Assembly (NCBI GenBank): GCA_963794945.1
Contig: CAWCFT010000004.1
Span: 1-64,000 of the forward strand
DNA from: Endomicrobiales bacterium
Lineage (GTDB): Bacteria; Elusimicrobiota; Endomicrobiia; Endomicrobiales; CAWCFT01
Direction: 5' to 3'
Length of the DNA stretch: 64,000 nt
Position 1 is the first letter of the stretch. Every line of letters starts with the position of its first letter. Made by a program: the position numbers and the translations under genes. This document shows, in pieces, positions 7,878 to 43,385 of the stretch. The notes beneath the pieces were generated by a model. It was not told the DNA's origin. It searched no databases and was given only the letters and a program-made list of their open reading frames with translations.

Positions 7878-7885
7878 GGCCCTTG

Positions 7886-15304: not shown

Positions 15305-15309
15305 TACTC

Positions 15310-16933: not shown

Positions 16934-16950
16934 AGTTTTACGTATGCCTG

Positions 16951-25628: not shown

Positions 25629-25719
25629 AATTTTTAATATATTAAAGATTCAAGATTAAAGATTTGAGATTAAAAGGCGTCAATCTTTAATTTTCTAAAT
25701 CTTTTAATTTTTAATTGTC

Positions 25720-26100
25720 TTATCTCGCAACAACTATAGTCCCGCTGGTCGTTGTGGTGCCGTCCCGCCACTGGTATATATAAACGCCGGGAAACACCAA
25801 ATTGCCCCCGTCATCTTTCCCGTCCCGAACAAGCCTCCAGCCGGTTGCTATCGCCATAGGGTTTAAGACCTGTATCGACCGCACTACCCTGCCGGTAAGG
25901 TCAAATATCTTTAATTCTGGTTTTGGTTCGCTGAAATCGTCAAAATCAAAAAACGCGTTCTCGTTTGACGCAGTGACTCCGGGCGTGATCAAGCGAGGGT
26001 AAACCTTGATGCCGGAATACACAATTGTGTTACAATATAGAAATACCACCGACGCGGCCAGCAAAATAGGAAAAAAATGAAATTTCACTATTTTATTCAT
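25720..26100 (-). CDS. Small secreted protein consisting only of a FlgD-Ig/gliding-motility CTD-like domain
   Basis: Signal-like N-terminus, then YPRLITP..KIFDLTGRVVR..DGKD..PGVYIYQ..GTIVVAR, matching the C-terminus of 27941..30991. Confidence 0.75.
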   Translation of the reverse strand: MNKIVKFHFFPILLAASVVFLYCNTIVYSGIKVYPRLITPGVTASNENAFFDFDDFSEPKPELKIFDLTGRVVRSIQVLNPMAIATGWRLVRDGKDDGGNLVFPGVYIYQWRDGTTTTSGTIVVAR

Positions 26101-26130
26101 TTTTGTTTCCTTTTTTAACTTTCATGAATT

Positions 26131-26159
26131 ATTATAACCTACTTTTCTACAATTTTCAA
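26131..26159 (-). promoter_or_regulatory. Sigma70-type promoter upstream of the small CTD gene and two-component pair
   Basis: Minus strand TTGAAA-17 nt-TATAAT, ~30 nt upstream of ATG 26100. Confidence 0.6.
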
Positions 26160-26288
26160 CAATTTCTTTATAAATATTATCATTTTTATGTTGTGGCATA
26201 CTCTACGCTGTAAGACTGTTTTTACCTACTAAGAATTGAAAATCCAGTCACTTTAATATATTCAATCATGAAACTTAAATTATACTTC

Positions 26289-27921
26289 TCATTCGCCTCC
26301 TATTTTATCCAGTTCATTCTGAGCTTCAGAAACATTTATACCCATTGTCTTATACTTATTTATCATGCGTTTAAGTATGTCCATCTTCTCTTCCCTCTTT
26401 ATCCCGTAGCTTGCCATGTTCCTGTAATAATCAAGTGAATCCTTGAAGTATTTTTCCTGCGCTTTCTGCTCGTCTACAAGAACGGTATGTTCCTGCTGTG
26501 CCTCGGTTACGTTGAGCTGAGCGCCGTATTTCTTTATTATTTCATCCACTTTTCGCAGCCTCTGCGGTATACTGGTTTCATTTGCCGTCTTTCTGTACTG
26601 GTTGAGCTCTCTCAGGTATTGTGCCGTAGTTACCGTGGCGACAGGCGCTTTCTGAACTGTCGCGGCCTTGACGGATGTAACCGGAACAACGACCTGAACG
26701 GTCGTCTTTGGAGCAAGAACGGTTTCGGGAACTGGCTTCTTGGTTATCGCTGCCACGACAGGCACTACCGGCGCCGGTTTGGAAAGCTGAATCTTGAGGG
26801 CTTTCCTTAGCCTCGCCAGTTCCGTATTCGCTTCCTGAAGTTTATTTTCCGTTTCCATGCGGGCTTGTTTTTCTTCGTTATATTGCTTCATCAACTTCTC
26901 TGTGTTTTCCGGTTTGTGTATAACGGGCCCAAAACGGAAGATCACCGATATTCTCTGGTCGCCGAGAGTGCCCTGTATTCCGGAGATGGGATAAACCATG
27001 GCGTAATCTATCTGGAAGTTATCTATCTTGTACCCTATCCCGCAGGAAATATCCACAAGCTCCCTGCTTCCGATGTCAAGCGCTCCTCTCAGCGCTATGT
27101 TATCGCTTACCTGTTTTTCGCCGCCCGTCGCCACCTGCCAGTCCGAAGAACCGTCGAACTGCTTGAACATAAAATCTATAAGCTGCAGAGAAGTCTTGCC
27201 GGTGTGCGTTATACCAAACTTATACGTTGTCCAAAGCGGCGCAAACACATCGCTCTGAAGAGCCAGGTTAGGCTGCGACAGGTTTTCAATCATCAACCCG
27301 AGCTTATAATTGTACGATATCTTGTACTGGACCCCGAGGTCGGCGTCAATATTGCCCTTTGTGTTGCCGTAGGTCGCGAACAGGCTGTCCTGTGCGCCTG
27401 TAGCGTTACCGTTGTTGTCAAGAGCGTTCATTGTATACTGGTCTTGGCCGTAGGCGATCTTAAGGTACTTAAGGTTTACTCCAAAACTGACATCCTTCCA
27501 TCCCTTGTTAAGGAAAGAACCGTCCCTGGCGTAAGTTAACATCATGGTATCTTCGCTGTAAAGTCCTGCCAGCGCGAAACGGAGCCAGCCTATTCCTAAG
27601 GCACCTGCATTCTTCCCGAGAGGCTGCGCCACGCCCAAGAAAGAATACCCAAGGTTGGAATTATCACTGAGCCCGGCGTAAAGCCTTGAATACTGCGCGG
27701 TAAATTCGGCCTGATTGAGCCACGCTATGCCGGCCGGGTTATGGTAGATGGAACTCGCGTCGTCGCAGGCAGAAACGTAGATCCCGCCCAGTCCGGCCAG
27801 CACGGCCGCTAACCGATGTCTCTTCAAAAGCCGCGTAAAGGTTAACCGCCCACGCGCCCGAGAAAATCAAGACCGCAGCGACAGCCCCGATCCTTCTTTT
27901 CACCGCTCTTGTTAGATTCAT
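26289..27921 (-). CDS. PorV/PorQ/PorP-like outer-membrane barrel with C-terminal coiled-coil/helical extension (frameshift at ~27800)
   Basis: Signal peptide plus AAFEETSVSGRA, then GLGGIYVSACDDASSIYHNPAGI; barrel ends QRISVIFRFG; P/V/A/T-rich linker and helical tail. Confidence 0.75.
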
Positions 27922-27940
27922 AAATTCCTCCGTGCTATAT

Positions 27941-30900
27941 TTATCTTGCTACGACTATTGTTCCGTTAACGACTTTACCTTCACCGGTAAGCTGATATAT
28001 ATAAACTCCGACGGGAACTGTCACGCCGTTTTGGTCTTTGCCGTCCCAGTAAGTATATCCACCTTGAATATCTGAAGTTGCATTCGTGTCGTCAAGCTTC
28101 CTTACCAAAGCGCCCCTTAGGTCGAATATCTTTATTGAAATACTGGATGCTTTCGGATTAGAATACCTAAACAGCGCGCGGTCATTCTGCCCGTCGTTAT
28201 TGGGAGTGATGATCCTGGGCATTACGCTGTAGAAGGTGAACGCCGTGGCCCTGGAAGCTATACGCAGCTGGTACGTGCCCGCGAACATTGCCTTGGCGTT
28301 AATAACCTTGTTGACCGTGTCAACAGTGCTCGCGATCGTCAGCCATTCAACGCCGTTATAATAGAACATAGACACATCGTTTTCAATATCTGCCTCCGGC
28401 ATTGCTCTTAATGCAGGCGCCTGCATGCCGCTGCCTATTCCTGTCATATAAGAGATCGACAACCCGCTCAGGTCAGAAGATGAGCTTGACGCATCATATG
28501 ACGTGAAATTACTCAGGCCGATTTTCACAAGATTAAAGGAAGACGTGGTTTCAACGACCTTATAAGGCTCCCATTCAATTGATTTTATTATCGGGCCCTT
28601 TTCATCGCTTATATCTCTTGTAAGCGTAATTATCATATTATCCTGCACTTTGCTCGCCTTTAATGTGAGGACTGAGCCTTCAGAACAAAGTATATGCACG
28701 TACTGGTCAAGGCTGAGAATATTTGAATCGCTGTAATTTCCCGAAGCGTCTATCGCGCGGACCTTGTAGTAGTATTGTGCGTTAGGCATCGGGATAGTAT
28801 CCGTATACTGCGTCGAAATGGAATTATTGACCGCTACCAGCTGCCAGTTCCCGAATATAGCGGTTGACCTGTAAATTTCATAGCTGTAAAGCTCCCTTAT
28901 TGAAGGCGCACTTGGATTTACAAACTTCGTACGGTCCGCGTTATAGTGCACAGGTGACCAGGAGATATTCGCTGTTGAGGCTGATATCCTGGCCAGGTTC
29001 AATCCAAGAGGGGCCATAGGCGGAATATTGTCGGTCCACGGAATGTAAGTGAAGCCGCATATCTCCGAAGAACGCGAATATACGCCGTATCCCGTGTAAG
29101 CGAACAGCATGACATAGTAAGTCGTTTCAGGAACAAGCTGGTTAGCCGTTAAAGAGTATGTTGTGTTCGGCGAGGCCGTCTTGTCAACCCACGCTGTCCC
29201 GTCTGTGGCGCTTGTCGGATACCTGTCTGTACGGTAAACAACTCTTGTGCCCAAAACGTTCGATTCCGGCGGTGTCGTCCATTGCAGGTACACGTTGCAG
29301 CCAACCGTGGGGTCAGTGCTTGCGCCAACAAGCATTGTAAGAACTTGGGGCGCCGAAGGCGTGACAAGAGCGCCGGAGATGAAGGCAAAGGTCACCACAG
29401 GAGATGTAGAAATGTTGCCCGCTGAGTCATAGCTGAACATAGAATAATAATATGTGGTAAATGCTGCGAGATTATTCTGCGTATACGCCTGCGGTTGAGA
29501 ATTAGTTCCTGCAACTGTGGCAAGATAAGCCTGAGAGGAACTAACCTGTGTATAGGTGCTGAAATATATGTTGACTCCAGCGTAATCAGAGTTCCTGTAA
29601 TACGGCACCGCGGGCGGGGTTGTCCATGCCAGGTTAATGTTATATTTGGTTATTGAGCCGGAGTTATCAACCATCGCAAGCGCCGTAACGTTGTTAACAG
29701 GATCCGGAGCAATGAGGTCCTGACTTACATAAACCTGAGTGCTCGTGCCTGCCGAGTAGTATGTTTCACCTGGGTTGAAAGCATAAACCGTATAATAATA
29801 GGTCGTGCGGGGTATAAGCTGAATATGCTGGTAGAGTGCCACCTGGCCTGAAGTTTCGGGTTGAAGGTCAATAAACTGCGCGCTAGCCGGCGTTGAAGGA
29901 GTTGCAGCGGTTGAGTAGCAGATCCTAACGCCTCCGAGATTATTCTCGCCTGTTGGGTTAGTCCATTTCAAGGACACATAAGAACCTGTGCTGATGTTGG
30001 CTGAAGCGTATGATACCGCGCTGAGCCCTGTTACCGGCTGGATCAGGCTGAACGGCTGCGCGGAAGCGTATTGAGGAAGTAATGACCAGTGGGTCGGCCA
30101 CTCATTCCTGATGAACGTCTCAAAATAATAAGTCGTTGGCAGAATAAGCCCTGTGATACTTACGGCCTGATAGTCGTTGGTCTGAATATTGGAAGTCGAT
30201 ATATATAATCTGGTTGAAGAATCCCAGTTATTTGCTGAATTCGGGTTATTAACTGATCCTGTCGGCTGAACGGTTGAATACTGTACGCAGTATTGTCCGG
30301 GGTAATATATCTTGTCCGGCACCATGTTATTGGACTGGTCAAAGAACAGCGGTGTTGTCCAGCTGAGCGTAACAGCGCCTATTTGGGCGGTCGTCCTGGC
30401 ATAAAGGCTTGTAATTTTCGTAGGGGTCCAGGGCTGAGTAGCAGCGTATGTTTGAGCCTGATTTGTAATGCTCTGTAATCCTTGGTCATAAGCGGCAGTG
30501 TTGAAGTACCTGTCGCGGGCTCTTACTCCAAAATAGTAGTAAGCCGCGGGTATAAGGCCTGAAATACTTACAGTTTCGGTGTTTCCCGGTGTTGCCTGGG
30601 CAAGCCATCCCAGCATCTGTGGCGTACCGGCCTGCAAGGCTGTCAACGTGTTCGGACTGTTCCACCATGCGTCAGCATTCGCAAAGCCGCTGGCTGGAGA
30701 TGTAGCGTATTTTATAACGTAAGAGTAAACAGGGCTTCCATCGGGCGCCATAGGAGCGCTCCAGGAAAGCACTACTCCTCCCGCTTTCTCAGGCACTGAG
30801 AAATCAGGAACAGCGTTGATGGACGTTATAGCGGTAGGATTGCCCGAATAAGGAGGGCAAACCTTTACACTTATAGCGACTGTGTTAGGCGAAGCCATAA

Positions 30901-30991
30901 GCTCACGGACAGGGATCCCCTGTCCCACGATCAATAGGCTTAGTCCTAATCTTACTATGGTTAATGGTTTAAGCCATTTCCATTTTTTCAT
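27941..30991 (-). CDS. Secreted multi-FN3 protein with gliding-motility-associated (T9SS type B-like) C-terminal domain
   Basis: Repeated LSW..P / L.P.TTYYY FN3 motifs; C-terminus PRIITPNNDGQND..WDGKDQNG..GVYIYQL..NGTIVVAR. Confidence 0.85.
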   Translation of the reverse strand: MKKWKWLKPLTIVRLGLSLLIVGQGIPVRELMASPNTVAISVKVCPPYSGNPTAITSINAVPDFSVPEKAGGVVLSWSAPMAPDGSPVYSYVIKYATSPASGFANADAWWNSPNTLTALQAGTPQMLGWLAQATPGNTETVSISGLIPAAYYYFGVRARDRYFNTAAYDQGLQSITNQAQTYAATQPWTPTKITSLYARTTAQIGAVTLSWTTPLFFDQSNNMVPDKIYYPGQYCVQYSTVQPTGSVNNPNSANNWDSSTRLYISTSNIQTNDYQAVSITGLILPTTYYFETFIRNEWPTHWSLLPQYASAQPFSLIQPVTGLSAVSYASANISTGSYVSLKWTNPTGENNLGGVRICYSTAATPSTPASAQFIDLQPETSGQVALYQHIQLIPRTTYYYTVYAFNPGETYYSAGTSTQVYVSQDLIAPDPVNNVTALAMVDNSGSITKYNINLAWTTPPAVPYYRNSDYAGVNIYFSTYTQVSSSQAYLATVAGTNSQPQAYTQNNLAAFTTYYYSMFSYDSAGNISTSPVVTFAFISGALVTPSAPQVLTMLVGASTDPTVGCNVYLQWTTPPESNVLGTRVVYRTDRYPTSATDGTAWVDKTASPNTTYSLTANQLVPETTYYVMLFAYTGYGVYSRSSEICGFTYIPWTDNIPPMAPLGLNLARISASTANISWSPVHYNADRTKFVNPSAPSIRELYSYEIYRSTAIFGNWQLVAVNNSISTQYTDTIPMPNAQYYYKVRAIDASGNYSDSNILSLDQYVHILCSEGSVLTLKASKVQDNMIITLTRDISDEKGPIIKSIEWEPYKVVETTSSFNLVKIGLSNFTSYDASSSSSDLSGLSISYMTGIGSGMQAPALRAMPEADIENDVSMFYYNGVEWLTIASTVDTVNKVINAKAMFAGTYQLRIASRATAFTFYSVMPRIITPNNDGQNDRALFRYSNPKASSISIKIFDLRGALVRKLDDTNATSDIQGGYTYWDGKDQNGVTVPVGVYIYQLTGEGKVVNGTIVVAR

Positions 30992-31009
30992 CTGTTTCTC
31001 TTTTACCGG

Positions 31010-31690
31010 TCAAACTTTAACGTGTGCTTCTTTGCCGTTACCTGTTACTGTGCTGTTCTGCGCTGTAACCACCAGTGTTAGGGTCCTGGGATTCGTGTTT
31101 GTTACCGCGAGAGGCGTAAGCATCTTTATCCAGAGCGTCCTGTCGGAGGAATAGTTGCCGCCTGCTCCGTTACTGGCGCCATTTAGAGCAACTGGCACTA
31201 TCCTGGATTCTACGTTTTGATAACCTTGAGCGTTATAAGCTCCCCAGCCGAAAGCGTTGCCGGGTGCATAATATTTGGCATTCGTACTGAACGTGTCCCT
31301 GATAATATTGAAACTGTCATTACCCGCGGTAGGAGCCGTGGTTTGGAACACGCCGTATATCGCAACCTGGTTAAGCCCGGGTGTATTGGCGAGTGTCCAT
31401 CCGCTGGTGTTCAATGAAGTTGAGTCTATGTTCAATTGCCAGCTGCATATCTGTCCCAGTGAATCGTTCCTTAACGTCACTCCGGCTGGCGCGTACGCCG
31501 TTGTACCTGCCGTTACATTGCCAAGGCCGAAATATGTAGTCGCACCTGTCAGCGATACGCTAATATTCGTGACACATGTAAATTCTATTAACGCGTTCGC
31601 AGAACCCTGTGCGTAGACAGGCTTTAAAAGGCTTGAGGCTGTAATTAACAACGCCGCAAACATAACCAAATTCAGCAATTTTCTAAACAT
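31010..31690 (-). CDS. Secreted pilin-like subunit (shared LxxxLxTPLA..TxTxxAQ domain)
   Basis: GGAGG-ATG at 31690; signal peptide MFRKLL..VYA; C-terminal LWIKMLTPLAVTNTNPRTLTLVVTAQ. The ORF also has two upstream in-frame ATGs. Confidence 0.7.
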   Translation of the reverse strand: MFRKLLNLVMFAALLITASSLLKPVYAQGSANALIEFTCVTNISVSLTGATTYFGLGNVTAGTTAYAPAGVTLRNDSLGQICSWQLNIDSTSLNTSGWTLANTPGLNQVAIYGVFQTTAPTAGNDSFNIIRDTFSTNAKYYAPGNAFGWGAYNAQGYQNVESRIVPVALNGASNGAGGNYSSDRTLWIKMLTPLAVTNTNPRTLTLVVTAQNSTVTGNGKEAHVKV

Positions 31691-31901
31691 GGCGCCGCCT
31701 CCTTTTAGAATTTTTGGGCTTTTGCCCGTTTCAGTTTTCACGCGAGGATCCTTCGTTTTTTCTTCCATGACACTCTCCTTTTGGCTGCGCTCGGTTTTCG
31801 AACCGGGCCACTCTGCTATTGGGAACCTTGGTTCCCATGCCGAATCACTGCTTTTCCTAGACTTCCCGTCTTTCTCAATCAACATAACACGCTCCTCCTT
31901 T

Positions 31902-32811
31902 TTAGTTTAAATATAATCTGATGAACTTTGCCGCTTCGATGGTTCCTGACTTGATAAGGATCTTTACCGCGTAGAACAGTTTCTCGGCCTCCTTAGCCTT
32001 TAGATTCGCTTTCATCTCTACGTTCATAATGCCGTCTTTTTTTAATGTGAATTTGCTTTTCGAAATCTCAATGTCCCTTATATCGCCTTTAACATACCCA
32101 CGCGGGATAGATATGCCGTTCGGCTGGGGGTCGACCGCTTCGATGGATATCTTTACGTTCTCCATTGAAGGGTTGATGAGCTTGAGCGGCACATCCTGTG
32201 TTATCACCGCTTTTGTGTCATTCGACGAAACGAGAACCATGAACTTCTCCGGCGTAATTATTACTCCCTGCGATTCGCGCGCCTTATTACGGTTAAGCTC
32301 TTTAAGCTCTGCCGCGGTCGGAGGCTTTGGCGCTATGCTGAAAAGTATCCTTCCTTTTAACGCCAGCGCGAAAGCCATACCCGCGGCCTTCATTTTGTTT
32401 GGGCGGAACTGAGGTTACAAGAACGTAAGCCTGATATTTCTCCCCAAGGTATTTCTCGTCATTTGGAACGCTTATAGTGACATCGGCAGTAGCTGTTTCA
32501 TCCGGCAAAAGCGACACATTTTTCTTTGAGACCGTTATCCAGGAAACGTCAGGTATTGGTTCATATCCCGCCCTGAGTTCCTCATTGCTTGGCGCAACTG
32601 ATTCATATTTCAGCTCAATAGGAGCGTCTCCCGAATAACTTACCCACATAGGGTAGTTGACGGCTTCGGTCAGGTTATAAACCCCTCCTATTTTGAGGTT
32701 GTCAATGTGCACCTCAGCGAAATTCGTTGAAAGCGTAGAGCCGAACGCTTCAACACCGGCCAAAACTGACATTAAAACCAACCCGCAAAACCATCTTCTG
32801 ATCTGGGACAT
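31902..32811 (-). CDS. Secreted two-Ig-domain chaperone-like protein, paralog of 35797..36741 (frameshift at ~32395)
   Basis: AAGGAG-ATG at 32811 (MSQIRRWF, signal peptide); IDNLKIGGVYNLT, GYEPIPDVSWI and PNDEKYLGEKYQ match the paralog; ORF 31902..32393 continues the homology (FSIAP, LKLINP). Confidence 0.7.
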
Positions 32812-32985
32812 TGTGCTCTCCTTTTTGCCCGCTATAATTTGAACATTTGAATAAGGCTTTAGGGGCCAACCGAAGTAATTCCTCCCCGCAGAGGTTTTGA
32901 CTTCCTTGTTGGCCCCAATAAAAGTTTGGCGGAGCAGGGTCTGTTTCTCCCCGCAGAGGCATGACTTCCGCTCCGCCGAAAATGG

Positions 32986-33145
32986 TTTGCCAAACCCGCT
33001 CTGTGCCATAGCGAAAAAACGAGGTTTTGAGCGAAACGAAGGAATCTGAGGCGCGGTGTAGTTTAAACAAACTACATAAGCCGAGGATTCCGATGTTGAA
33101 GCCAAAACATCGTTTTTGCAGTAGGAACAGGGCGGGATTGGCAAA
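32986..33145. repeat. ~160-bp long imperfect palindrome (MITE-like) inside the hairpin array
   Basis: TTTGCCAAACCCGCTCTGT...ACAGGGCGGGATTGGCAAA ends with nested arms (AAAAACGA/TCGTTTTT, GGAATC/GATTCC, TGTAGTTT/AAACTACA). Confidence 0.75.
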
Positions 33146-33819
33146 CGAAGGACAAAAGAGGACTGTTCTCCCCGCAGAGAATAGACACCGTCTTTTGTCC
33201 CGAAAATAGTAAGGAGCCGGCCGAAGTAATTCCTCCCCGCAGAGGTTTTGACTTCCTGGCCGGCTCCAAAAGTTGTGGGCAAAACTCCAAAGTATTTCCT
33301 CCCCGCAGAGGTTTTGACTTCCGTGTTGGCCCCGTTAAATACAGTTGAAAAGTTCAATAGTTCAATGTTCAAAGTTTTAACTACCCCACCCATGGAATCC
33401 TTAAATCCTTGAACTATTAAACTTTGAACCTTTGAACCAGATGTAAAGAAGTGGCGGAGCAGGGTCTGTTTCTCCCCGCAGAGGCATGACTTCCGCTCCG
33501 CCGAAAAAGTTGGGACAAAAGAGGACTGTTCTCCCCGCAGAGAATAGACACCGTCTTTTGTCCCGAAAATAGTAAGGGGCCAACCGAAGTAATTCCTCCC
33601 CGCAGAGGTTTCGACTTCCTTGTTGGCCCCAATAAAAGTTTGGCGGAGCAGGGTCTGTTTCTCCCCGCAGAGGCATGACTTCCGCTCCGCCGAAAAAGTT
33701 GGGACAAAAGAGGACTGTTCTCCCCGCAGAGAATAGACACCGTCTTTTGTCCCGAAAATAGTAAGGAGCCGGCCGAAGTAATTCCTCCCCGCAGAGGTTT
33801 TGACTTCCTTGCCGGCTCC

Positions 33820-33855
33820 AAAAGAAAAAGCCTCGATCTGAGAAGAGATCGAAGC
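33820..33855 (-). terminator. Intrinsic terminator between the duplicated pilin-like genes and the hairpin array
   Basis: Minus strand GCTTCGATCT-cttctc-AGATCGAGGC followed by TTTTTCTTTT. Confidence 0.65.
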
Positions 33856-34145
33856 TGTATAAATATGTGTAGAAGCCTTAAGGGATAGACCCTGGGCTTT
33901 GAAATATTCTATTGCGCGGGGACGTCTTAGTGTGTCAAGAGCTTCATAAGACGATCTCGCAACGGCGCGGGAGCCGGGAAAACCCGGCAAGCCATTACGG
34001 TCGTACACGGAAGTCTACCTCTGCGGGGAGATATTTTTCCTATTCTTTTTTACTGGTCCACCCACCCTCACCGTTTTCAGGAGGTTTCACTACTAAACGA
34101 TGAGGTAAGGTTGAACAGCAAAACTGCTTTGGTTTTCAATTTATG

Positions 34146-34814
34146 CTACTTTGCAAGCACCGTCAAACCAATTGTCTGCGAAACGTTCGTCGATACAGCA
34201 AGAGGCGTATTTAATACAAGGTAAAGATAATAGCTTGTGTTCGGCATACCTTTGCCTTCAGGTGCGTAAGCAGTGCCGCCTGTTCCTGGATGGTAAAACG
34301 TGGTTGTACCCCACCAGTTGGTCGGAGGAATGGTTGGAAACACGTTATTGTCGGCTCCACCGCCGCCTGCGGCATTGGTAATTGCAGTAGCTGCTGATGG
34401 CATTGTTGTGCAAAAAGCGCCGCCGAGCGCGTACTTGTCAGCCTGGCCGGTAAGCGTCCAGCTGGTGTACTGTTGCTCAGTGTTACCGGTTTGAGTTGAA
34501 ACATAAACAGCGAAGGTCTCGACAGCTGCAAAGCTGGTGTTACTGTTGTTAAGAACGAATATCGGCGTGCTAAATAGGATACTCGTACCGGTAAGCGCGT
34601 TCAGGGTACTGAAAGCGACCGTATACTGGGGGTTAGCAACGGCGTCAGTACTGATCGAGACCAATACCTGCCTGTTGCAGTTAAACACTACGTTGAACTG
34701 CCCGTAGTTCGCCGCCTGCGCAACACTGCAAACCCCGCCTATTGATACCAGTAGCGTACCTAATGCAATTTTATTCATAATTTTCCACCACTTGCAATTC
34801 TTCATATATACCAT
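34146..34814 (-). CDS. Secreted pilin-like subunit, copy 2 (start may be 34778)
   Basis: Signal peptide ending AQA; mature sequence almost identical to 34828..35475; ends YLVLNTPLAVSTNVSQTIGLTVLAK. Confidence 0.8.
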   Translation of the reverse strand: MVYMKNCKWWKIMNKIALGTLLVSIGGVCSVAQAANYGQFNVVFNCNRQVLVSISTDAVANPQYTVAFSTLNALTGTSILFSTPIFVLNNSNTSFAAVETFAVYVSTQTGNTEQQYTSWTLTGQADKYALGGAFCTTMPSAATAITNAAGGGGADNNVFPTIPPTNWWGTTTFYHPGTGGTAYAPEGKGMPNTSYYLYLVLNTPLAVSTNVSQTIGLTVLAK

Positions 34815-34827
34815 TTATCGCTAGATA

Positions 34828-35475
34828 TTACTGTGCAAGCACCGTTAAACCAATTGTCTGCGAAGCATTCGTCGATACGGCAAGCGGCGTATTTAAGACA
34901 AGGTACAGATAATAGCTTGTGTTTGGCATACCTTTGCCTTCAGGTGCGTAAGCAACTCCACCGGTGCCTGGATGGTAATACGTGGCGGTACCCCACCAGT
35001 TGGTCGGAGGAATGGTTGGAAACACGTTATTGTCGGCTCCACCGCCGCCTGCGGCATTGGTAATTGCAGTAGCTGCTGATGGCATTGTTGTGCAAAAAGC
35101 GCCGCCGAGCGCGTACTTGTCAGCCTGGCCGGTAAGCGTCCAGCTGGTGTACTGTTGCTCAGTGTTACCGGTTTGAGTTGAAACATAAACAGCGAAGGTC
35201 TCGACAGCTGCAAAGCTGGTATTACTGTTGTTAAGAACGAATATCGGCGTGCTAAATAGGATACTCGTACCGGTAAGCGCGTTCAGGGTACTGAAAGCGA
35301 CCGTATACTGGGGGTTAGCAACGGCGTCAGTACTGATCGAGACCGATACCTGCCTGTTGCAGTTAAACACTACGTTGAACTGCCCGTAGTTCGCCGCCTG
35401 CGCAGCGCTAAAAACGCCTGCGAGCATTACAACGAACAAAAACAAAGACAAAATGCCCATCACTTTTTTAAACAT
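34828..35475 (-). CDS. Secreted pilin-like subunit, copy 1 (candidate major subunit)
   Basis: AAGGAGG RBS; signal peptide ending AQA; alternating N-terminal strand GQFNVVFNC; ends YLVLNTPLAVSTNASQTIGLTVLAQ. Confidence 0.82.
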   Translation of the reverse strand: MFKKVMGILSLFLFVVMLAGVFSAAQAANYGQFNVVFNCNRQVSVSISTDAVANPQYTVAFSTLNALTGTSILFSTPIFVLNNSNTSFAAVETFAVYVSTQTGNTEQQYTSWTLTGQADKYALGGAFCTTMPSAATAITNAAGGGGADNNVFPTIPPTNWWGTATYYHPGTGGVAYAPEGKGMPNTSYYLYLVLNTPLAVSTNASQTIGLTVLAQ

Positions 35476-35584
35476 TTGAAACCTCCTTTTTGATTTATTT
35501 ATTTTCTGATTTTTAAGATTTTACAGCCGATCACCTCCAGAGTTTGATGTTTAATTAAGAAGCTTACTTCTCGTTTCCACTAAT

Positions 35585-35613
35585 ACTATAGCACCGCTTA
35601 ACGAATTTGTCAA
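35585..35613 (-). promoter_or_regulatory. Near-consensus sigma70 promoter for the pilin-like genes
   Basis: Minus strand TTGACA-17 nt-TATAGT with extended -10 TG, ~110 nt upstream of ATG 35475. Confidence 0.75.
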
Positions 35614-35796
35614 GTATTTTATTATTTTGGTTTATATTGCCTGAACACCCATCCGGATATACGTTTCTACCGCGTCTGTATGTTTTTTGAGCAACGGCAA
35701 CCCTCCCTGTTTGACCCACCTGCTTGACCGGCTGGCAAGGCCAAACACGTAATATGCCTTGCCTTTCATGCCTTCCAGCCGTGGTGGCAATTAGAA

Positions 35797-36741
35797 CTAC
35801 CTGGTTGAGACATATATTTTAGAGCGATAGCTGGTCTTTATCAGTTCATCCTCTACGTAAACTTCAACCACGAAAAAGTACTTTTTCCCGCGGTATTTTT
35901 CATCTTTGGGAAAACTTATTGAAAAAGGAAGCTTTTTTATCTCGAGCGGGTTTATCTTCAATTTCTCTTTTGGAAAAGATAAAAATGAAGGATTTGGAGT
36001 GTTTTCCCAGCCTGGCGGGGCTATTATTCCGGTTTCGGAAACCTGCAGGCTTTTTATTCTAACCTTAACCGGTTCATCACCTGTATTGACCAGCTTGAGG
36101 AACGTGCCTTTTTCTTTTTCAACATCCACATTTTTCCCTATCGGCACATCTTCCACAGGCAGGTCATTCGGAGTGAGTTCGATGTTGACCAGTTTGTATT
36201 TGGCTTTTTCAAATTTCTTTTTTTCTTCTTCTGTAAGCGCCCTGGGCGCGATTGTGAACTTGAGCGCGCCCAAGACTCCAACTCCGACAACAGCGGCCGC
36301 TGATCGGTCAAGGCTATCCATGGGAACAGTCTTCGCCAATATCTTCATTTGATATTTATGCCCCAGATATTTTTCGTCATTTGGTATCCTTATCACGATA
36401 TCCGCCGAACCGGTTTCACCCGCCATAAGAACAAAATTATCTTTTGAAATGCTCACCCATGTCATATCCGGCACGGGTTCGAAACCGGGCATGCATTCAC
36501 CGGTGGTTGTATTAAGAAGCGTTACTTGCACTCTGTTCTGCATAAAAGTGGAAGTAATTTTGTAGGGCATGCTTCCCATTTGCGTGAGGTTGTAAACCTG
36601 GCCGATCCTTAAATTATCTATCTCTAAATCGGCTGTTGGGCATGCTAGCCCCGCAAAAGCCCTGCATGGAATAAAAATGGCCGCAATGCATGCAAGCATT
36701 ACGGCAGTCATAAATACCCTGAATTTTGAACAAAATATCAT
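35797..36741 (-). CDS. Secreted two-Ig-domain chaperone-like protein (PapD/DUF916-like pattern)
   Basis: Signal peptide; two internally similar domains ending IPNDEKYLGHKY and FPKDEKYRGKKY; WVSISKDNFVLMAGE and LVNTGDEP motifs. Confidence 0.65.
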   Translation of the reverse strand: MIFCSKFRVFMTAVMLACIAAIFIPCRAFAGLACPTADLEIDNLRIGQVYNLTQMGSMPYKITSTFMQNRVQVTLLNTTTGECMPGFEPVPDMTWVSISKDNFVLMAGETGSADIVIRIPNDEKYLGHKYQMKILAKTVPMDSLDRSAAAVVGVGVLGALKFTIAPRALTEEEKKKFEKAKYKLVNIELTPNDLPVEDVPIGKNVDVEKEKGTFLKLVNTGDEPVKVRIKSLQVSETGIIAPPGWENTPNPSFLSFPKEKLKINPLEIKKLPFSISFPKDEKYRGKKYFFVVEVYVEDELIKTSYRSKIYVSTR

Positions 36742-36816
36742 TTTCTGCTCCTCCTTTGGAAATCAATAATATAATTTTTTAAATATAACGTCAAATAGTA
36801 AAATCTAATACTACCG

Positions 36817-38235
36817 CTACGGATTAGTTTGTTGGGCAGTTATAGTCACTGTAATGCTCTCTTGAGCGGTTGTGCCCGTGGCCAGCGGTGTTGAAAGGTT
36901 AAACCACAGGTTCCGCTGCGTGTCAGTTGAAATTGCAGGAAATGGGTCAACATTTGCGCCTGTTTTGGAGCCGTCAATGGTGAACATCGAGCCCGTGCAT
37001 AATATGCTTGAAAGGCTTAATTGATTGCCGTTTGTATTATAGCTCGCGAGGCTCGCGGGCCTTGGCCCGTTAAACGCCGCCTGTAGTTCAAAAGTATTCA
37101 TTGCCGGCGAAGCGGCTAACAGAAAATCAGTTGTGCTTGAGCCCTGTATATTGTAGGTTTCATAAACATTTCCTGAATTTGTTACTACGGCAGGATTATA
37201 GGTGTCAGTTGAAATGTTTGTCGCAAGTGTCCCGTAATAAAACCACGTAGTCGGCAAAGTAATGCTTAAATTCACCATGGTTGCCCACGTGTTAGTCGAA
37301 TTCGATATGCTTGACCAGCTTAACATCTCATTAGCGGTCCATAAAGCTATGTAATAGGTTACACCCTGCTGTAGAGAGGTAAGGTTGCATGACTGGTAAG
37401 AGCCGGGGGTCACACTCGCGGTAGATAAATATACAGTGTCAACAGAATACGTGCTGTAGGTCACGCCTGACCAGCTTGAGCGCTGTATCGCGTACTCGCT
37501 TCCCGCAAGCAGTGTTCCGCTGTAGCCGTTGTCCCCCGGGGCGGTCCACACAAGCTGGATGCTTCTTCCGTATTGCCCCTGGAAAGCATTAAGGTTTGTT
37601 ACAGGCCCGGGCGCCCAGAGGAACATGCATGTCGCGCCGTTAGAAAGGTCGGACCAGTTGCAGGCCTGGTCAAGCGTCCACATCATGAAATAATAAGTAG
37701 TCCCTTTAACAAGGCCGGTTATGGGCCAGCTGCAGGCTGAACCGGGGTTAACATTCCCTGTAGATATCACTATTTCGCATGTATTTGTATTCCTTTTGTT
37801 ATTCCAGTAACCGGGGTTTGTTGCGTTCGCAAGGACAGTGGTGGACGCTATAAAGATCTGCGTCCCCATAAGCAGCTGCCCTGTGCCCTGGTCGTCACCC
37901 GGGGCTATCCACGAAAGCGTCAGCGCTCCCACCTGTGCATTGGCATATAAATTAAGGGTTGTTATGTTATTCGGGGCTATCAGGTCCTGCCCAAGGTATC
38001 CCGCGTTAAGAGTATAAGCGCCGCCGGTAAGGGTGGTAATGCCACCCGGCTCGCCTATCGTTCCCATCAGGCTGGTGGCGCCGTTGGTATAGCCTGCAAC
38101 GGGCGCACCGCCGGCGTCAAGGTTGTCAACCGTTATCTCAAACGTGCCGCCGGTCATCACGGGCCGGCTGGCCTCTAAAGCCGAAGCTGAAAATAGGGCT
38201 ATGGATAATAAAAGGCAGAATCTTCTGATATCCAT
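36817..38235 (-). CDS. Secreted protein with two FN3 domains and a C-terminal pilin-like domain (candidate tip or adaptor)
   Basis: LSWIAPGDD and LVWTAPGDN FN3 repeats; C-terminal RNLWFNLSTPLATGTTAQESITVTITAQ. Confidence 0.78.
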   Translation of the reverse strand: MDIRRFCLLLSIALFSASALEASRPVMTGGTFEITVDNLDAGGAPVAGYTNGATSLMGTIGEPGGITTLTGGAYTLNAGYLGQDLIAPNNITTLNLYANAQVGALTLSWIAPGDDQGTGQLLMGTQIFIASTTVLANATNPGYWNNKRNTNTCEIVISTGNVNPGSACSWPITGLVKGTTYYFMMWTLDQACNWSDLSNGATCMFLWAPGPVTNLNAFQGQYGRSIQLVWTAPGDNGYSGTLLAGSEYAIQRSSWSGVTYSTYSVDTVYLSTASVTPGSYQSCNLTSLQQGVTYYIALWTANEMLSWSSISNSTNTWATMVNLSITLPTTWFYYGTLATNISTDTYNPAVVTNSGNVYETYNIQGSSTTDFLLAASPAMNTFELQAAFNGPRPASLASYNTNGNQLSLSSILCTGSMFTIDGSKTGANVDPFPAISTDTQRNLWFNLSTPLATGTTAQESITVTITAQQTNP

Positions 38236-38553
38236 TGTTTGTCCCGCTTATCTTAATAAATCCGAAATTCGAAGCACGAAATCCGAAAAAATTACAAACT
38301 GATAATAGCCTGGAGCTTGTAGCCTGCAGCTTGCAGCCTACCATTGCCTCTAATGCCTTTCGTTATGTGCCCTGTTTTATATCAAATATCAAAAATCAAA
38401 AGTCAAAAGTACATTTCAAAATCTAAATATTTTTAATCTTTAACCTATATTTTTGATCTTTGATATTTAATTTTTGATTTGCTTATGCCATGTTGAAAGT
38501 TAACGACTTTGGTTTCACTTACCACTTACCACTTATCCCTTATCGCTGCTGTT

Positions 38554-41500
38554 TCACGGATAACTAGTCGTAGCGGCCCTTAATTCCCTTAAATGAATGC
38601 CCCTTATAAGCGAGCCCGAGGTCATAGGCACGGGGTTCGTGAAAACAGGGGTTGACCCCGTGACATTATAATAAGGGGATGCCACCGCGTCCCGCAGTTG
38701 GTTGAGATGCACCCCCCTTATGAGGCTGCCAGCGCCCAGCGTTGACCAGCTTTGATCCCACGGATAAGTTCCGCTTCCGCGCAATGTCCTGACATTATTT
38801 ATGGCTTTTTGAAGGTCCAGAAAATGCGCCGCTCTTATTGGAGTTGACCCGTCCGTAATAGGGTCGGTCATGCCTACAGTCATTGTGCTCAGCATTACGG
38901 CGATGGTGTTGGACCAGGGCGGCGACTGCAGGCCCTGCGAATCCTTAATAAGCGCCCTCACATACCACGTCGTGCCCAGAGGAAGCCCCGCTCCTGTGGG
39001 GTATAATGTGTGCATTATCGAGTTAGTGCTGTAACACGGCAGTGTGACAAAACTACTGCTAAACGATGGGGTGGTAGACCAGTAATCTGTGGTAAGAGGC
39101 GTAAAACTGTTGTTGGCGGATATCTGAATTCTGGCCGCGCTTATCTGGTATGCGTCTGTATCGGTAAAAACTATCCATGGATGCGGATTATACGTAAATC
39201 CAAGGCCGGTGCCCGAAACCGGCGAAGTTATTGTAACGGCGGACGGCTCCAGCGCTTCATTAGCTCCTATATCCCAGGCAATACCTTGCGGCCTCGCATT
39301 GCCTAAAATATCGTAATTGAACGGTATCACCGGATCTGTCGCCAGGCTTGTTCCGTAGTCTCTGGCGCCGTTGTCCGTTGCGGTAATAAGATAATTGTTG
39401 GATCCCGAGTTTACGAATGTAAAAGTCTGGTTGGCCCGGTTTCCGCTCCCGCCGTAGCTGGTCGCTGTGCCGTCGGCTGACGCGCAGTAATTAACAGCGT
39501 AGCCGACACCCGTATTAAGAGAAAAATCCCTATAGCCGCTGACCCCCAGGCAGTTAGTTACTGTCGCTGTCTGTACGGATGCTGACCTGAAGCCGCGCCC
39601 GTTAGGGCATATACCTGTGCAATTGTAAGCGTATGTCGTTACGCCAGTGCCCCCGTTGGAATAAAAAGCGGCGACTGTATTAGAATAACTTGAGTTGTTA
39701 ATGCCTATGCAGTTCCACCACTCTATCGTAAAGGGGTTGGCGGTTATGCTCCAGCAATCAAACGTAAAGTAATTATCAGTATCACCAGTACCCAAATACC
39801 AGCCGAAGCAATCTGAGAACTTGACCAGACCGGTTGTTGACTGGCCAGTTACAAAATATGTGCGGCTGTTACTAGTCGGTTCATATATTGAAAGCCCGTC
39901 AACCCAAACGTAGTTGTCCTGGATTATAAGTTCCCCTTGTATCCTATACCCGTTGCCCCAAGTCCCGTTGTGCCTCTGCGACATCCCTACCTCCGCGCTT
40001 GATACAGGAGTGTATATCTTTACATAGTTGCTCGAACTGGTTGTCCAACCTGTCTCAGTTACGGACACGTTGTCCACCCCGTCCGCGTAACAAGGCACCA
40101 TCATTATATAATTCGACGACACCAGGTTCTGGCTTGCCAGAGGTACCTGTCCGCTGACCGCGCCGCTGATATTTGAATTCACGGTCGAGTTTCCTTCCCA
40201 GTTTCCAAGTGAATTGTAACAGCGGTAGACGCTGGCGCTTGTGCCGGCAGAAGCTGACTGCGGCGTTCCGCCGTTTGAACTCTGAACCGTGAAAGTCGTT
40301 GCATTTGCGCGCCCGCAAATAAAGGCAATATATGTACTGCCATAAACAATGGCGTCCCCGACGCCCACATTATTCGGCATATTCCCGCTGAACGTGGCGG
40401 TGGTCCCGGCTATAGTCACTGTGTAAGAATTAGTATTGAGATTGGTCGCGGTCGTCCCAACTGAACGGTACAGGCCGGTGATTGGAGGTTCCGCCGTCTC
40501 ATAAGCTCCTATATCCCAGGCAGGACCGATTGGCCTCGTATTGCCGCAAATATCGGTATTGAACGGTATAACCGGGTCAGCCGAGAGGTTTTCGCCATAG
40601 TCTCTGGCGCCGTTATCCGTTGACGCGATAAGATAATTATAATTGGGGTTTCCCGGGCTTACGAATGTAAAAGTCTGGCCGCTCCGATTTCCCGTCCCGC
40701 CGTAACTGGTCGCTGTGCCGTCGGCGGACGCGCAATAATTAACAGTATAGCCGGCACCCGTATTAAGAGAGAAATCCCCTACCGCTTTGCCCCAGGCAGT
40801 TAGTCAGTGTTGCTTGATGCACCGCTGCTGAGGCGAACGCGTACCCTGTGGGACATATCCCTGTGCAATTGTAAGCATACACAGTTACATTATTAGAGCT
40901 ACCTGTATAGTCGCCGTTGAAATAAAAAGCTGCAGGCGTTCCAGCTTCAGTTGAGTTATTAAGGCCTATGCAATTCCAGTATTCTATCGTAACGGTGCCG
41001 CTATAATTATAATTGTCAAACGTTCTAAGCCCGCCACTGCTCTGATTCCAGGCGAAGCAATTTGATATCTGGATCAGCCCCGGGCCCGGCACCGGGTTAC
41101 TGCTTGAAGTATCGCCGCAAAAAAATGTACGGTAATAATTCGGATAATTATATACTGAAATCCCGTCAATTTTGAAGTAGTTATCGTAGATAATAAAAGA
41201 CCCCTGTATCCTGTACCCATTGCCCCAAGTCCCGTTGTGCCTCTGTGATACCCCTACCTCCGCGCTGGATATAGGAGTGTATATTTTTATATAGTTGCTC
41301 AGCCCGGTTTTCCAACCCGACTCATTTAAAGTTCCATCTACCCCGTCCGCGTAACAGGGCACCATCATTATTACATTTGACGTCACCAGGTTAGAGCTCG
41401 GCAGAACAACGAAATTACTGCTGATACCCGCGCCGGTGATACCGGTATTTACAGTTGTGTTATTGCTCCAGTTCTGGAGCGAAGTGTAACAGCGGTAGAC

Positions 41501-43032
41501 ACTGGCGGCTGCCCGGAAGCCAACGGCGGTGGCCCGCCGGTTGAATTCTGAACCGTGAAATGCTGTGAATCTGTGCGCCCGCAAATAAAGGCGATGCTGG
41601 AGCCGTAAACAATGGCGTCTCCTACTCCCACGTTATTCGGCATGGCCCCGCTGAATGTGGCGTTGGTCCCGGATATGGTCAGCGTGTTCCCGGTATTGAG
41701 ATTGGCCGTATTACCGGGCCCCACTGAGCGGTACAGGGCTGTAACCGGGGCGAGCACTGGCGCCTCATACGCTCCTATATCCCAGGCAGGGCCCTGGGGC
41801 CTTGTATTGCCGCAAATATCGTAACTGAACGGTATCACCGGGTCCGCCGCAAGGCTTTCACCGTGGTCTCTGGCGCCCATGTCCGTCCCCGTAATAAGAT
41901 AATTGTTGGCTGCCGAGTTTACAAATGTAAAAGTCTGGTTGCTCAGGTTTCCGCTCCCCCCATAGCCGGTCGCTGTGCCATCGGCAAACGCGCAATAATT
42001 AACATTGTTGTTCGATAAATTATGGAAATCCCCATAGCCGCTCTGCCCCAGGCAGTTCTTCAGTGTTGCTGAGAGTATGGATGCCTGCTTGAACGCGTAA
42101 CCTGTGGGGCATATCCCCGTGCAATTGTAACAATACGCCGTTACATTAGCGCCGCCGTTGAAATAAAAAGCAGCGGCTCCGGAAGCACTACAGGTGCTGA
42201 TGCCTATATCGTTCCACCACTCTATCGTAAAGGCGCTGGCCGTTATATTCCAATCATCAAACGGATATTGTTGATCACCATTAAGAGTATTCGTATTCCA
42301 GGCGAAACAATCTGAAATCTGGACCAGCCCGGTGGCTGTCTGGCCGCCTACAAAAATTGTGCGGTCATCACCCGACTGATATACGGAAAGCCCGTCAACC
42401 CAAACATAGTTGTCGCCGATATCAAGGTGCCCTGTTATCTGATACCCGCTGCCCCATGTCCCGTTATGCCGCTGTGACGCCCCTACCTCCGCGCTTGCCA
42501 CAGGAGTGTATATCTTTATATAGTAGCTCGCCGAGGTTGTCCAACCCAAATCGGTTGCGTTTCCGTCCATCCCGTCCGCATAACAGGGCACCATAAATAT
42601 TGCACTTAACGACGTCAGGTTCTGGCTCGACAGAGGAACCTGGCCGCTGACCGCGCCGCTGATATTGCTATTCACGCCTGAGTTTCCAAGACAGTTATTG
42701 AGCGAATTATAACAGCGGTAGACATTGGCGCTTACCGCGGAAGCTGCCTGCGGCGTTCCGCCGTTTGAACTCTGAACTGTGAAAGTTGTTGAATTTGTGC
42801 ACCCGCAAATAAAGGCGATATACGTACTGCCGTAAACAATGGCGTCACCAACGCCCACGTTATTTGGCATAGCCACGCTGAATGTGGCGGTGGTGCCGGA
42901 TATTGTCACCGTGCACGCGGAATTGAGATTAGTCGCAGTGGTCCCCACTGAACGGTACAGGCTTACCGCGCAAAAGGCCGTGCCGGCAAAAAGAACCATA
43001 AACAGTGATACAAGAACTATCCTATTTCTCAT
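38554..43032 (-). CDS. Large secreted adhesin-like protein (~1490 aa) with three homologous ~400-aa modules (frameshifts at ~41515 and ~40780)
   Basis: Each module runs LYRSVG..MPNNVGVGDAIVYG..SQRHNGTWG..RPxGxAWDIGAxE; C-terminal triple IRxxHxxxLxxA motif; ORFs 41449..43032, 40763..41584 and 38554..40419 are collinear pieces. Confidence 0.8.
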
Positions 43033-43223
43033 TATTAAATACCTTTTAAATACGTTAGCTCAAAAGTTCTAATTAAAGCATTTTTGTTTAAAAGTTCAAC
43101 GGTTCAAAGGTTCAATTGAACCTTTAATCCTTTGATCCTTTGAACTCGGTTTTATGGTTATTGAACTTTTAAACCCTTGATCCTTTGAACTCGGTCTTAT
43201 GCCTGTTATTGAACCTTTAAACC

Positions 43224-43385
43224 CTAAACCCGGAACATTGTTTTATTTCTTATTACCGCGTCAACCGTTTTCTCGTCTTTGCAAAACCTTTTATAATTCA
43301 AATCTTTTGTATATTTCTCTATCTTTTTAATGGCTCCGAGAATATCTTCAATAAAGAGAATATAATCCCGTTTTTCCTTAAACAT
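43224..43385 (-). pseudogene. Truncated DUF86/HepT-like toxin (53 aa)
   Basis: Manual translation MFKEKRDYILFIEDILGAIKKIEKYT..DEKTVDAVIRN, then homology stops; no RxxxxH motif; overlaps the stop of the MNT gene. Confidence 0.75.

Follow-up and report, generated by a model that had tools for sequence, protein, structure and literature searches.

A candidate chaperone-assisted donor-strand fibre locus in an Endomicrobiales bacterium

Introduction

The stretch of DNA considered here (hereafter the window) comprises 64,000 nucleotides of an Endomicrobiales bacterium (GTDB lineage Elusimicrobiota; Endomicrobiia; Endomicrobiales; CAWCFT01; assembly GCA_963794945.1, contig CAWCFT010000004.1). It contains a locus that probably encodes a chaperone-assisted donor-strand-exchange fibre together with a chaperone-like partner protein made of two immunoglobulin-like (Ig) domains. 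A donor-strand filament had been suggested in an initial annotation of the sequence, and the suggestion has gained support from computational lines that agree with each other: the distribution of a short N-terminal strand, the predicted subunit fold, the predicted three-copy assembly, and the chaperone-like fold predicted for the two-Ig protein.

In the proposed mechanism, the fibre would be built from small Sec-exported subunits, namely B and C, which are probably the major shaft subunits, and A. Each would combine an Ig-like domain, short of one strand, with a 14-residue N-terminal extension ahead of it. The alternating hydrophobic residues F6, V8, F10, and C12 of B would fill a groove whose walls are the conserved R-x-L-W-[FL]-[RK]-[LFI]-x-[TM]-P ... 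T-I-T-V-T-I-T-A strands. A larger FN3 fusion protein ends in the same C-terminal domain without the extension, so it could only accept a strand, and it would be placed at the distal end of the fibre as the payload. Soluble two-Ig proteins, one of which is encoded ahead of each subunit type, would keep the groove capped in the periplasm until strand exchange takes place.

Organization of the locus

According to the open reading frame (ORF) list of the window, every gene of the locus lies on the minus strand. Transcription proceeds from the tip FN3 fusion through Ig2a, B, C, about 1.2 kb of local repeats, the split Ig2b, A, and a protein with a C-terminal sorting domain (CTD) to a PorV/PorQ-like barrel. 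The features are as follows.

36817..38235, minus strand: tip or cargo candidate of 472 amino acids (aa); behind the signal peptide come a small beta domain at the N-terminal end, two FN3-like domains, and, at the C-terminus, a pilin-like domain
35797..36741, minus strand: Ig2a, an intact two-Ig secreted protein of 314 aa, candidate periplasmic chaperone for the B and C subunits
35585..35613, minus strand: near-consensus sigma-70-type promoter, TTGACA-17-TGnTATAGT, upstream of subunit B
35481-35488, minus strand: Shine-Dalgarno sequence AAGGAGGT, 5 nt ahead of the subunit B ATG at 35475
34828..35475, minus strand: subunit B, 215 aa, candidate major shaft subunit (models, Foldseek, promoter, and ribosome-binding site)
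34146..34814, probable start 34778, minus strand: subunit C, tandem duplicate of B with 91% identity to it
32305..32811, minus strand: N-terminal part of Ig2b, aligning to an intact orthologue (14199-15041) in the related locus L002
31902..32393, minus strand: C-terminal part of Ig2b in another frame, aligning to the same intact orthologue
31010..31690, minus strand: subunit A, 226 aa, second subunit type (motif alignment, BLASTP, and L002 orthologue)
27941..30991, minus strand: FN3-rich CTD protein of 1016 aa with a C-terminal sorting domain of the type IX secretion system (T9SS) type (Pfam matches)
26289..27827, minus strand: PorV/PorQ-like outer-membrane barrel (PorV_fam and synteny), the C-terminal half being coiled-coil, proline-rich, and helical

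The duplicated subunit gene had been credited with a near-consensus promoter and a ribosome-binding site, and both are present. The promoter of B (35613-35585) matches 11 of 12 consensus positions, carries the TG extension in addition, and is the best of 17 sites. The tandem duplication that gave B and C is recent, with 300 nt at 94% identity and proteins that are 91% identical. Over 34146-35475, the signal peptides of B and C diverge more than the mature parts.

Between C and Ig2b lies a repeat array (32860-33830) composed of a 53-nt unit present five times and a 189-nt tandem at 97%. A 27-nt core occurs in five copies there and nowhere else in the window (0 expected). No Rfam family matched within 25000-45000, and the repeats are thus not a known RNA. 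At the same intergenic position, L002 carries unrelated insertions.

A shared C-terminal domain and its family

The four secreted proteins share the C-terminal motif L(W/Y)xxLxTPLA...T(I/L)xxxxxA(Q/K), as had been noticed at the outset. Alignments place it in A (31010-31690), C (34146-34814), B (34828-35475), and the C-terminal ~155 residues of the tip protein (36817-38235). Judged by BLASTP, the likeness of the A, B, and tip domains exceeds chance, with E-values of 5e-5 for A versus B and 7e-5 for the tip versus A, and of just 0.09 for the tip versus B. A hidden Markov model (HMM) of the four sequences also finds the same domain beside a two-Ig gene in three other loci (E 2e-26 to 4e-7). In the tip protein, the acceptor-only, pilin-like domain spans about 36820-37320 and aligns with the small subunits. 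The FN3 evidence in this protein is a weak match to the FN3-type Pfam family Pur_ac_phosph_N.

The domain belongs to a family that extends far beyond this locus. The profile A3, made from nine sequences of the window and of related loci and searched against 1.84 billion representatives, recovered 1288 of them at E<=1e-3; 635 of these passed E<=1e-10 and 13 passed E<=1e-30. Architectures were counted in the best 150 members, 142 of which had enough upstream sequence. An invariant proline occurs in all 150, the tryptophan of W-x-[LIV] in 144/150, and R-x-L-W in 143/150. In 147 of the 150, at most 10 residues follow the domain. Stand-alone members of ~180 aa, in which a signal-type h-region is followed directly by a strand of ~14 residues, account for 65/142. 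The other 77 are C-terminal fusions without a free N-terminal strand, most of them joined via an FN3 'NWSxISN' junction. The payloads of 22 large fusions include FN3, lamin-tail (LTD), FG-GAP, GH113 mannanase, GH130-like, DUF2341, and CBM4_9 domains.

No Pfam family reached threshold for the subunit domain in 73 small members, and none was matched by the three small subunits of the window or the tip C-terminal domain. NCBIfam likewise gave nothing at threshold in the 73 members. The sub-threshold matches were choice_anch_D in 5/73 (best E 2e-4) and the fimbrial entries SteA (E 1e-3) and PRK15306 (E 5e-3) in one member each, with scores of 19 and 17 bits where the cut-offs are 218 and 205. A word-based homologue search with subunit B returned its own paralogue as sole match, and tblastn with subunit A and with Ig2a as queries gave no match among 72,556 plasmids. 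Among PDB sequences, the A4 profile gave nothing significant, the best being a ciliary ASH-repeat protein at E 0.05, and the A6 profile gave zero matches. The subunit domain thus forms a large family with no curated Pfam or NCBIfam entry.

The position of the domain also invites another explanation, namely that it is a C-terminal surface-attachment or sorting module, which fixes cargo proteins, and small proteins made of the domain alone, to the envelope or the two-Ig protein and forms no polymer. WxL domains, found in a surface system of Bacillota, were long interpreted as attachment modules. The near-constant location at the extreme C-terminus and the very diverse payloads, glycoside hydrolases among them, fit this explanation. 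So do the adjacent T9SS-type CTD proteins and PorV-like barrels, and small domain-only proteins exist for the T9SS CTD as well, for example at 25720-26100. An attachment module would, nevertheless, leave unexplained why stand-alone members alone carry an extra amphipathic N-terminal strand, and why a domain-only gene has a strong promoter and was duplicated. It would also leave unexplained the predicted insertion of the strand into a groove, with zero-scoring controls, and the pilin-dominated fold matches described below. Moreover, the same argument was overturned for WxL by a preprint of October 2026 on the Elr pilus, as far as the available part of that text goes (bioRxiv 10.64898/2026.10.17.759780). 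An attachment role without polymerization is therefore considered unlikely.

The N-terminal strand

The three small proteins have about 14 extra N-terminal residues, which the FN3 fusion lacks. Between the signal-peptide cleavage site and the domain they carry GQFNVVFNC or ALIEFTC and then V/I-S-V-S. Mature B starts with ANYGQFNVVFNCNR, in which the putative donor strand (residues 1-14) is followed by an incomplete Ig-like domain, and mature A starts with GSANALIEFTCVTN. The FN3-bearing protein had been described as devoid of this extension. The alignment agrees, since the end of its second FN3 domain fills the donor-strand position. The same division runs through the family, in which stand-alone members have the strand and fused members do not, and the i, i+2, i+4 hydrophobic pattern is found in 52/53 stand-alone N-termini. 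The initial annotation had further described an alternating strand that ends in cysteine. Such a strand is present in the three small proteins, but the cysteine is not a family feature, being found in only 16/53 stand-alone relatives; V or I is commoner at this position.

A conserved donor-strand cysteine acting as a lock was considered and rejected, as cysteine is present in 29 of 126 aligned rows and a second cysteine in a fixed column accompanies it in 9 of these 29, mainly in A-type members. The A-type members (31010-31690, L002 15272-15802, P0013, P0019, P0020, and P0025) carry the strand-end cysteine plus a second one ~43 residues on (I-C-S/R-W). From the sequences, this pair could form an intra- or inter-subunit disulfide.

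Predicted fold and assembly of the subunits

Mature B was modelled with a 73-row alignment. The AlphaFold2 (AF2) model reaches a predicted local distance difference test (pLDDT) score of 73 and a predicted template modelling (pTM) score of 0.70, with a pLDDT of 85-89 for residues 1-20. The top PDB matches of the model in Foldseek are nearly all donor-strand pilins: CfaB, TLP-1b, TLP-1a, FimA, TasA, the archaeal bundling pilin (ABP), CupE, CsuA/B, and Tafi. CfaB is the best of them (E 8e-3, probability 0.98), and TLP-1b, TasA, and ABP follow at E 1.1e-2, 4.6e-2, and 6.8e-2; Csu gives a TMq of 0.44.

Strand complementation between subunits, which had been proposed as a check, is what the assembly prediction returns. 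Three copies of mature B give an ipSAE interface score of 0.57 (runs 0.59, 0.41, and 0.57) versus 0.00 in the best of three controls. The three-copy runs agree in at least 72% of contacts, with a partner pLDDT of at least 68. In the predicted interface, one copy places its residues 1-14 against residues 16-20 and 165-188 of its neighbour, and contact is closest at the pairs 183:6, 185:4, 186:3, 181:8, 165:8, 167:8, 169:12, and 173:12. From the pairs 183:6, 185:4, and 186:3, the donor strand is predicted to run antiparallel to the last strand of the neighbour. In this model F6, V8, F10, and C12 of B would face the groove formed by the two conserved strands of the C-terminal motif. These four residues are the four hydrophobic-conserved positions of the stand-alone members.

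The two-Ig proteins

The AF2 model of Ig2a (pLDDT 85.7) shows two beta-sandwich domains with a helix between them. Its best Foldseek matches are tandem ASH-type Ig proteins (E 8e-13). Next to these stand the WxLIP protein of Enterococcus faecium, both unbound and in complex with a long WxL protein (9i1y and 9i25, E 3e-8), and the pilus chaperones CsuC (6e-8), FimC (about 2e-7), SfaE, and CfaA (E 6e-8 to 2.3e-7 for the four). A comparison of the locus with Csu, CFA/I, WxL, and TasA had been suggested earlier. For Ig2a it succeeded through WxLIP, CsuC, and CfaA, and for B it gave the pilin-dominated list above, although without a match at E<=1e-3. The likeness of the Ig2 proteins to PapD-type chaperones is confined to the fold, with no Pfam match to the PapD families PF00345 and PF02753. 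The sole Pfam match of Ig2a is FixG_C at 24 bits, below cut-off. Ig2a is thus a candidate chaperone with a predicted chaperone-like fold. It has few detectable relatives, three besides itself by single query and 21 by profile. A C-terminal transmembrane (TM) helix is found in 0/22 members of the Ig2 family, the maximum 18-residue Kyte-Doolittle mean over the last 45 residues being <=1.19 in all 22. PF06030 (DUF916) appears in 1/22 at E 0.0088, below threshold, and PF11797 (DUF3324) in 0/22.

A soluble, periplasmic-type two-Ig protein whose fold matches the chaperones of chaperone-usher (CU) pili could also belong to a classical CU system with the usher elsewhere in the genome. The weak sub-threshold fimbrial matches to SteA and PRK15306 in 2/73 members point the same way, and the view is limited to 64 kb of a contig that measures at least 434,690 bp. 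Against this stands the initial claim that the window holds no usher, sortase, or prepilin peptidase, which was borne out: none of these families occurs among the 37 (12 + 25) window ORFs scanned, and in the same ORFs there is no match to PF00577, PF00345, or PF00419. Furthermore, in the four related loci with flanks no large barrel gene is seen apart from the PorV-like one, and CU operons normally keep the usher beside the chaperone. A classical system with a distant usher is hence very improbable. The term usher-less applies to the locus within the 64-kb window.

Conservation of the neighbourhood

Recurrence of the gene order in other genomes had been named as a check, and the order does recur in other metagenome-assembled genomes (MAGs). 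A scan of GTDB species genomes gave five loci (L001-L005), each of which was searched locally with the HMM of the subunit domain. A subunit-domain gene adjoins the Ig gene in 3/5 of them (L001, L002, and L004), as it does in the window. In L001, the gene directly upstream of the Ig gene encodes an FN3 fusion that is an orthologue of the tip protein and has the same architecture. In L002, a giant fusion stands upstream of the Ig gene and two stand-alone subunits are present. L004 has a subunit directly upstream of the Ig gene and a CTD-bearing protein after it. L003 is a 1.5-kb contig, too short for judging the neighbourhood, and L005 (4 kb) holds a three-domain Ig protein alone.

The whole order is conserved in L002, a MAG labelled Ignavibacteria: tip fusion, Ig2a-type, B-type, Ig2b-type, A-type, CTD protein, and PorV-like barrel. 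Compared with the window, the A-type subunit after Ig2b has 43% identity, the CTD protein 39% over its full length, and the PorV-like barrel 37%.

Additional genes border the related loci. After the Ig gene of L001 (6167-8060) lies a 466-aa protein whose N-terminus resembles a donor-strand-free subunit domain (NWTLGPGPG...; HMM E 0.22, not significant) and continues into propeller-like repeats; it is followed by a protein of 162 aa whose single domain is related to the first of the Ig domains of Ig2. In the window, the products of three paralogous genes upstream of the tip gene (38554-43032) have in common a repeated segment at the N-terminus, ISGTTATFSG..VGVGDAIVYGS, a motif like that of choice-of-anchor-Q, and the C-terminal ending ...TTSYP. 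Since a ...TTSYP-tailed protein (L001 2894-3643) precedes the tip gene of L001, conservation of the locus may reach further upstream. The ORFs 40763-41584 and 41449-43032 overlap, and another frameshift may be present there.

Export, anchoring, and a wider reading

Apart from the subunits, the locus encodes proteins that recall the T9SS. The CTD protein (27941-30991) matches fn3 in Pfam (E 8.9e-16) and reaches the curated threshold for a C-terminal sorting domain through CHU_C (32.2 bits against a 27-bit cut-off), whereas TIGR04131 scores 27.6 bits, below its cut-off of 35. A PorV-like barrel adjacent to the subunits had been reported initially, and 26289-27827 matches PorV_fam at E 1.3e-12; the 48 bits are below the 90-bit cut-off. 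A second pair, a UPF0164/PorV-like barrel fragment (16427-16975) and a 1429-aa CTD protein with BNR repeats and FlgD_ig/Por_Secre_tail, is located at 16427-21240, so that pairs of barrel and CTD cargo recur in the genome. No LPxTG sorting signal was found in 187 window ORFs, the single regular-expression match being without a hydrophobic tail, and no lipobox in the six locus proteins checked.

The mature CTD protein opens with SPNTVAISVKVC and leads through PPYSGNP to the first FN3 domain. Its orthologue in L002 opens with SALVQLRVSS-PYTGNP, and the CTD protein of L004 with GSFVFTVIMD. By inspection, these N-termini could be read as donor strands, and by analogy with the LPxTG base of the WxL pilus the CTD protein may be hypothesized to be a base or anchor subunit that starts with one, terminates the fibre, and would tie it to the outer membrane by T9SS-type sorting. 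A 13-position donor-strand HMM was non-discriminating here, giving 1.4 bits for subunit A and 0.6-0.7 bits for the CTD proteins (rank about 16-18/149).

A wider reading combines these elements. The locus would stand for a third lineage of donor-strand pili guided by a chaperone, widespread among diderm and uncultivated phyla, with a soluble chaperone, with T9SS-type and PorV-like export and anchoring in place of usher and sortase, with an FN3 stalk base, and with enzymes at the tips. The stalk base would start with a donor strand and end in the T9SS-type sorting domain, and the PorV-like barrel would serve export or anchoring. This reading is speculative and on the doubtful side. Were it true, the locus would hold a diderm counterpart of the LPxTG/sortase anchoring of WxL pili, and the family would display GH113 and GH130-like hydrolases at fibre tips.

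The consequences of a donor-strand fibre in this bacterium would be considerable. The known settings of donor-strand pili are the chaperone-usher systems, for the most part in Proteobacteria, and the WxL system, which the available part of the October 2026 preprint reports from Bacillota only. If Elusimicrobiota-like and further uncultivated bacteria had a chaperone-pilin module parallel to these, it would alter this known distribution, and the assembly principle would be far wider than threshold-based family searches reveal. It would also provide a function for more than 1000 clusters of 'hypothetical' proteins. Furthermore, it would raise the matter of how the fibre crosses or attaches to the outer membrane, for which a T9SS-type anchor is one possibility.

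Weighing the donor-strand fibre

Several points weigh against a donor-strand fibre. Its four independent computational lines are all predictive as regards assembly. The model of B contains low-confidence loops, and its Foldseek matches in the PDB all stay above E 1e-3, with TM-scores of 0.24-0.44. In the calibration of the prediction tool, the ipSAE mark was reached by 20/30 proteins solved as pairs and by 1/23 solved as single chains, and as many as 19 of every 100 single chains may attain it; the prediction for B, made with three copies and a user alignment, lies outside that calibration. The prediction model may also have learned donor-strand geometry from solved pili. As for the genes, a one-base frameshift near 32395-32405, within a stretch rich in A, divides Ig2b into two halves that are otherwise intact, which could reflect a recent pseudogene or an assembly error. 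Hence, of the two interleaved paralogous two-Ig proteins described initially, the paralogy and the interleaving stand but only Ig2a is intact. No stand-alone donor subunit is present in L001 (10.6 kb) or L005 (4 kb), and the fibre would have to cross the outer membrane although no route for it was found in the locus. Finally, DSSP assigns no strand to residues 1-17 of the B monomer model, and the linker between the N-terminal strand and strand A measures 2-3 residues only, so an intramolecular hairpin is sterically possible.

This last point leads to the view that the small proteins are self-contained secreted Ig-like binders of the ASH or choice-of-anchor-D kind, in which the first strand would pair with strand A as an intramolecular hairpin, while the Ig2 proteins would be unrelated neighbours. 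Besides the very short linker, the sub-threshold choice_anch_D matches, the ASH-type Ig matches, and the confident monomer model over residues 1-20 speak for it. On the other hand, fused members without the strand keep the rest of the domain and would be incomplete if the strand were an integral part, the adjacency of the Ig2 gene is conserved across loci, and the three-copy prediction puts the strand in the neighbour. Self-contained binders are accordingly quite unlikely, and the chaperone-assisted donor-strand fibre is preferred.

Other features of the window

Outside the locus, the first part of the window (1-7994) encodes a right-handed beta-helix protein of 2252 aa with 17 Beta_helix stretches, which coincides with an extreme GC skew of about -0.67 over the first 6 kb. 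Long antisense ORFs recur there at 1350-bp spacing, and the gene is thus taken to contain long tandem repeats. At 13869-16353, a FliG C-terminal-domain gene and a FliF/YscJ C-terminal-domain gene adjoin a TPR protein, with other flagellar genes not visible nearby. The region 46812-54476 carries AddB/AddA-like helicase-nuclease genes, with an insertion-sequence-type transposase between them (DUF4372 and DDE_Tnp_1, 50037-51203, plus strand); the UvrD-like gene consists of two overlapping ORFs, 51334-53304 and 53103-54476.

Comparison with known systems

Of the known systems, the WxL/Elr pilus, which belongs to Enterococcus faecalis and further Bacillota, comes closest to the locus. In the part of the October 2026 preprint that was available, WxL clusters of Enterococcus are reported to build a pilus through donor-strand exchange guided by a chaperone, with a DUF916/DUF3324 protein as the chaperone, anchored in the membrane, large WxL proteins of variable payload as tips attached C-terminally, and an LPxTG protein with a donor strand as base (bioRxiv 10.64898/2026.10.17.759780). 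The same text describes the system as confined to Bacillota by Pfam gathering thresholds and gives a C-terminal TM helix for 96.7% of WxL chaperones (10.64898/2026.10.17.759780).

The likeness of the locus to this system is extensive. Going by that description, both have small domain-only subunits, large payload proteins that carry the domain C-terminally, and a two-Ig protein, and Foldseek matches the WxL chaperone, like Ig2a, to CsuC and CfaA. From the side of the locus, the match of the Ig2a model to 9i1y and 9i25 is joined by weak leads in the ESM Atlas (subunit to WxL, 0.86; Ig2a to WxLIP_PGBD, 0.87) and by the near-invariant W-x-[LIV] and a second tryptophan of the family. A donor strand of ~14 N-terminal residues, antiparallel to the acceptor's C-terminal strand, is common to the two systems, for the locus by prediction, and so are the extreme C-terminal position of the domain (147/150) and the diversity of the payloads. 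However, the Pfam WxL family PF13731 is matched by 0/73 members at E<=0.05, and the candidate chaperone lacks the pair of PF06030 and PF11797. In addition, 0/22 Ig2 proteins end in a TM helix, against the reported 96.7% of WxL chaperones, and the window contains no LPxTG base or sortase, the CTD protein occupying the equivalent gene position. The hosts differ too, with Elusimicrobiota/Endomicrobiales on one side and, in the preprint's account, Bacillota on the other.

Chaperone-usher pili (Fim, Pap, CFA/I, Csu, and CupE) resemble the locus in having a soluble secreted two-Ig protein of chaperone-like type and a tip with a C-terminal pilin domain and no N-terminal extension. The predicted subunit fold is also similar (CfaB, FimA, CsuA/B, and CupE). 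The locus departs from them in lacking a PF00577 usher among the 37 window ORFs, PF00345/PF02753 chaperone domains, and PF00419, and no significant sequence relation links its proteins to any PDB chain.

TasA, archaeal bundling pili, Tafi, and TLP-1 are, according to the portions of the reports available, chaperone-free or TapA-nucleated donor-strand fibres (PMC9674648, PMC9245690, PMC10151520, PMC11494351). They share with the proposed fibre the independence from an usher, the secreted subunits, the donor strand, and weak fold matches. Unlike the locus, these systems are described without a conserved two-Ig partner gene, and fused acceptor-only cargo proteins are common in the locus family, unlike in TasA-type fibres. 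No Peptidase_M73/TasA (camelysin) family and no SipW-type signal peptidase occurs in the subunits or the neighbouring ORFs scanned.

Type V pili (FimA/Mfa1) of Bacteroidota are, like the proposed fibre, diderm strand-exchange fibres without an usher. Their subunits are protease-processed lipoproteins, whereas those of the locus have no lipobox and an N-terminal donor strand. Mfa5, a component of these pili that depends on a C-terminal domain of the T9SS type, is linked to the T9SS, a possible precedent, by analogy, for the CTD protein.

A full-text literature search found no paper that joins donor-strand assembly with Elusimicrobia. The initial annotation had called the filament uncharacterised. 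The filament itself is supported, but the locus is less unprecedented than it first seemed, because the WxL pilus, as presented in the available part of the October 2026 preprint, is functionally parallel to it. Although not demonstrably a member of either family, the locus would thus function in the manner of a WxL or a chaperone-usher pilus.

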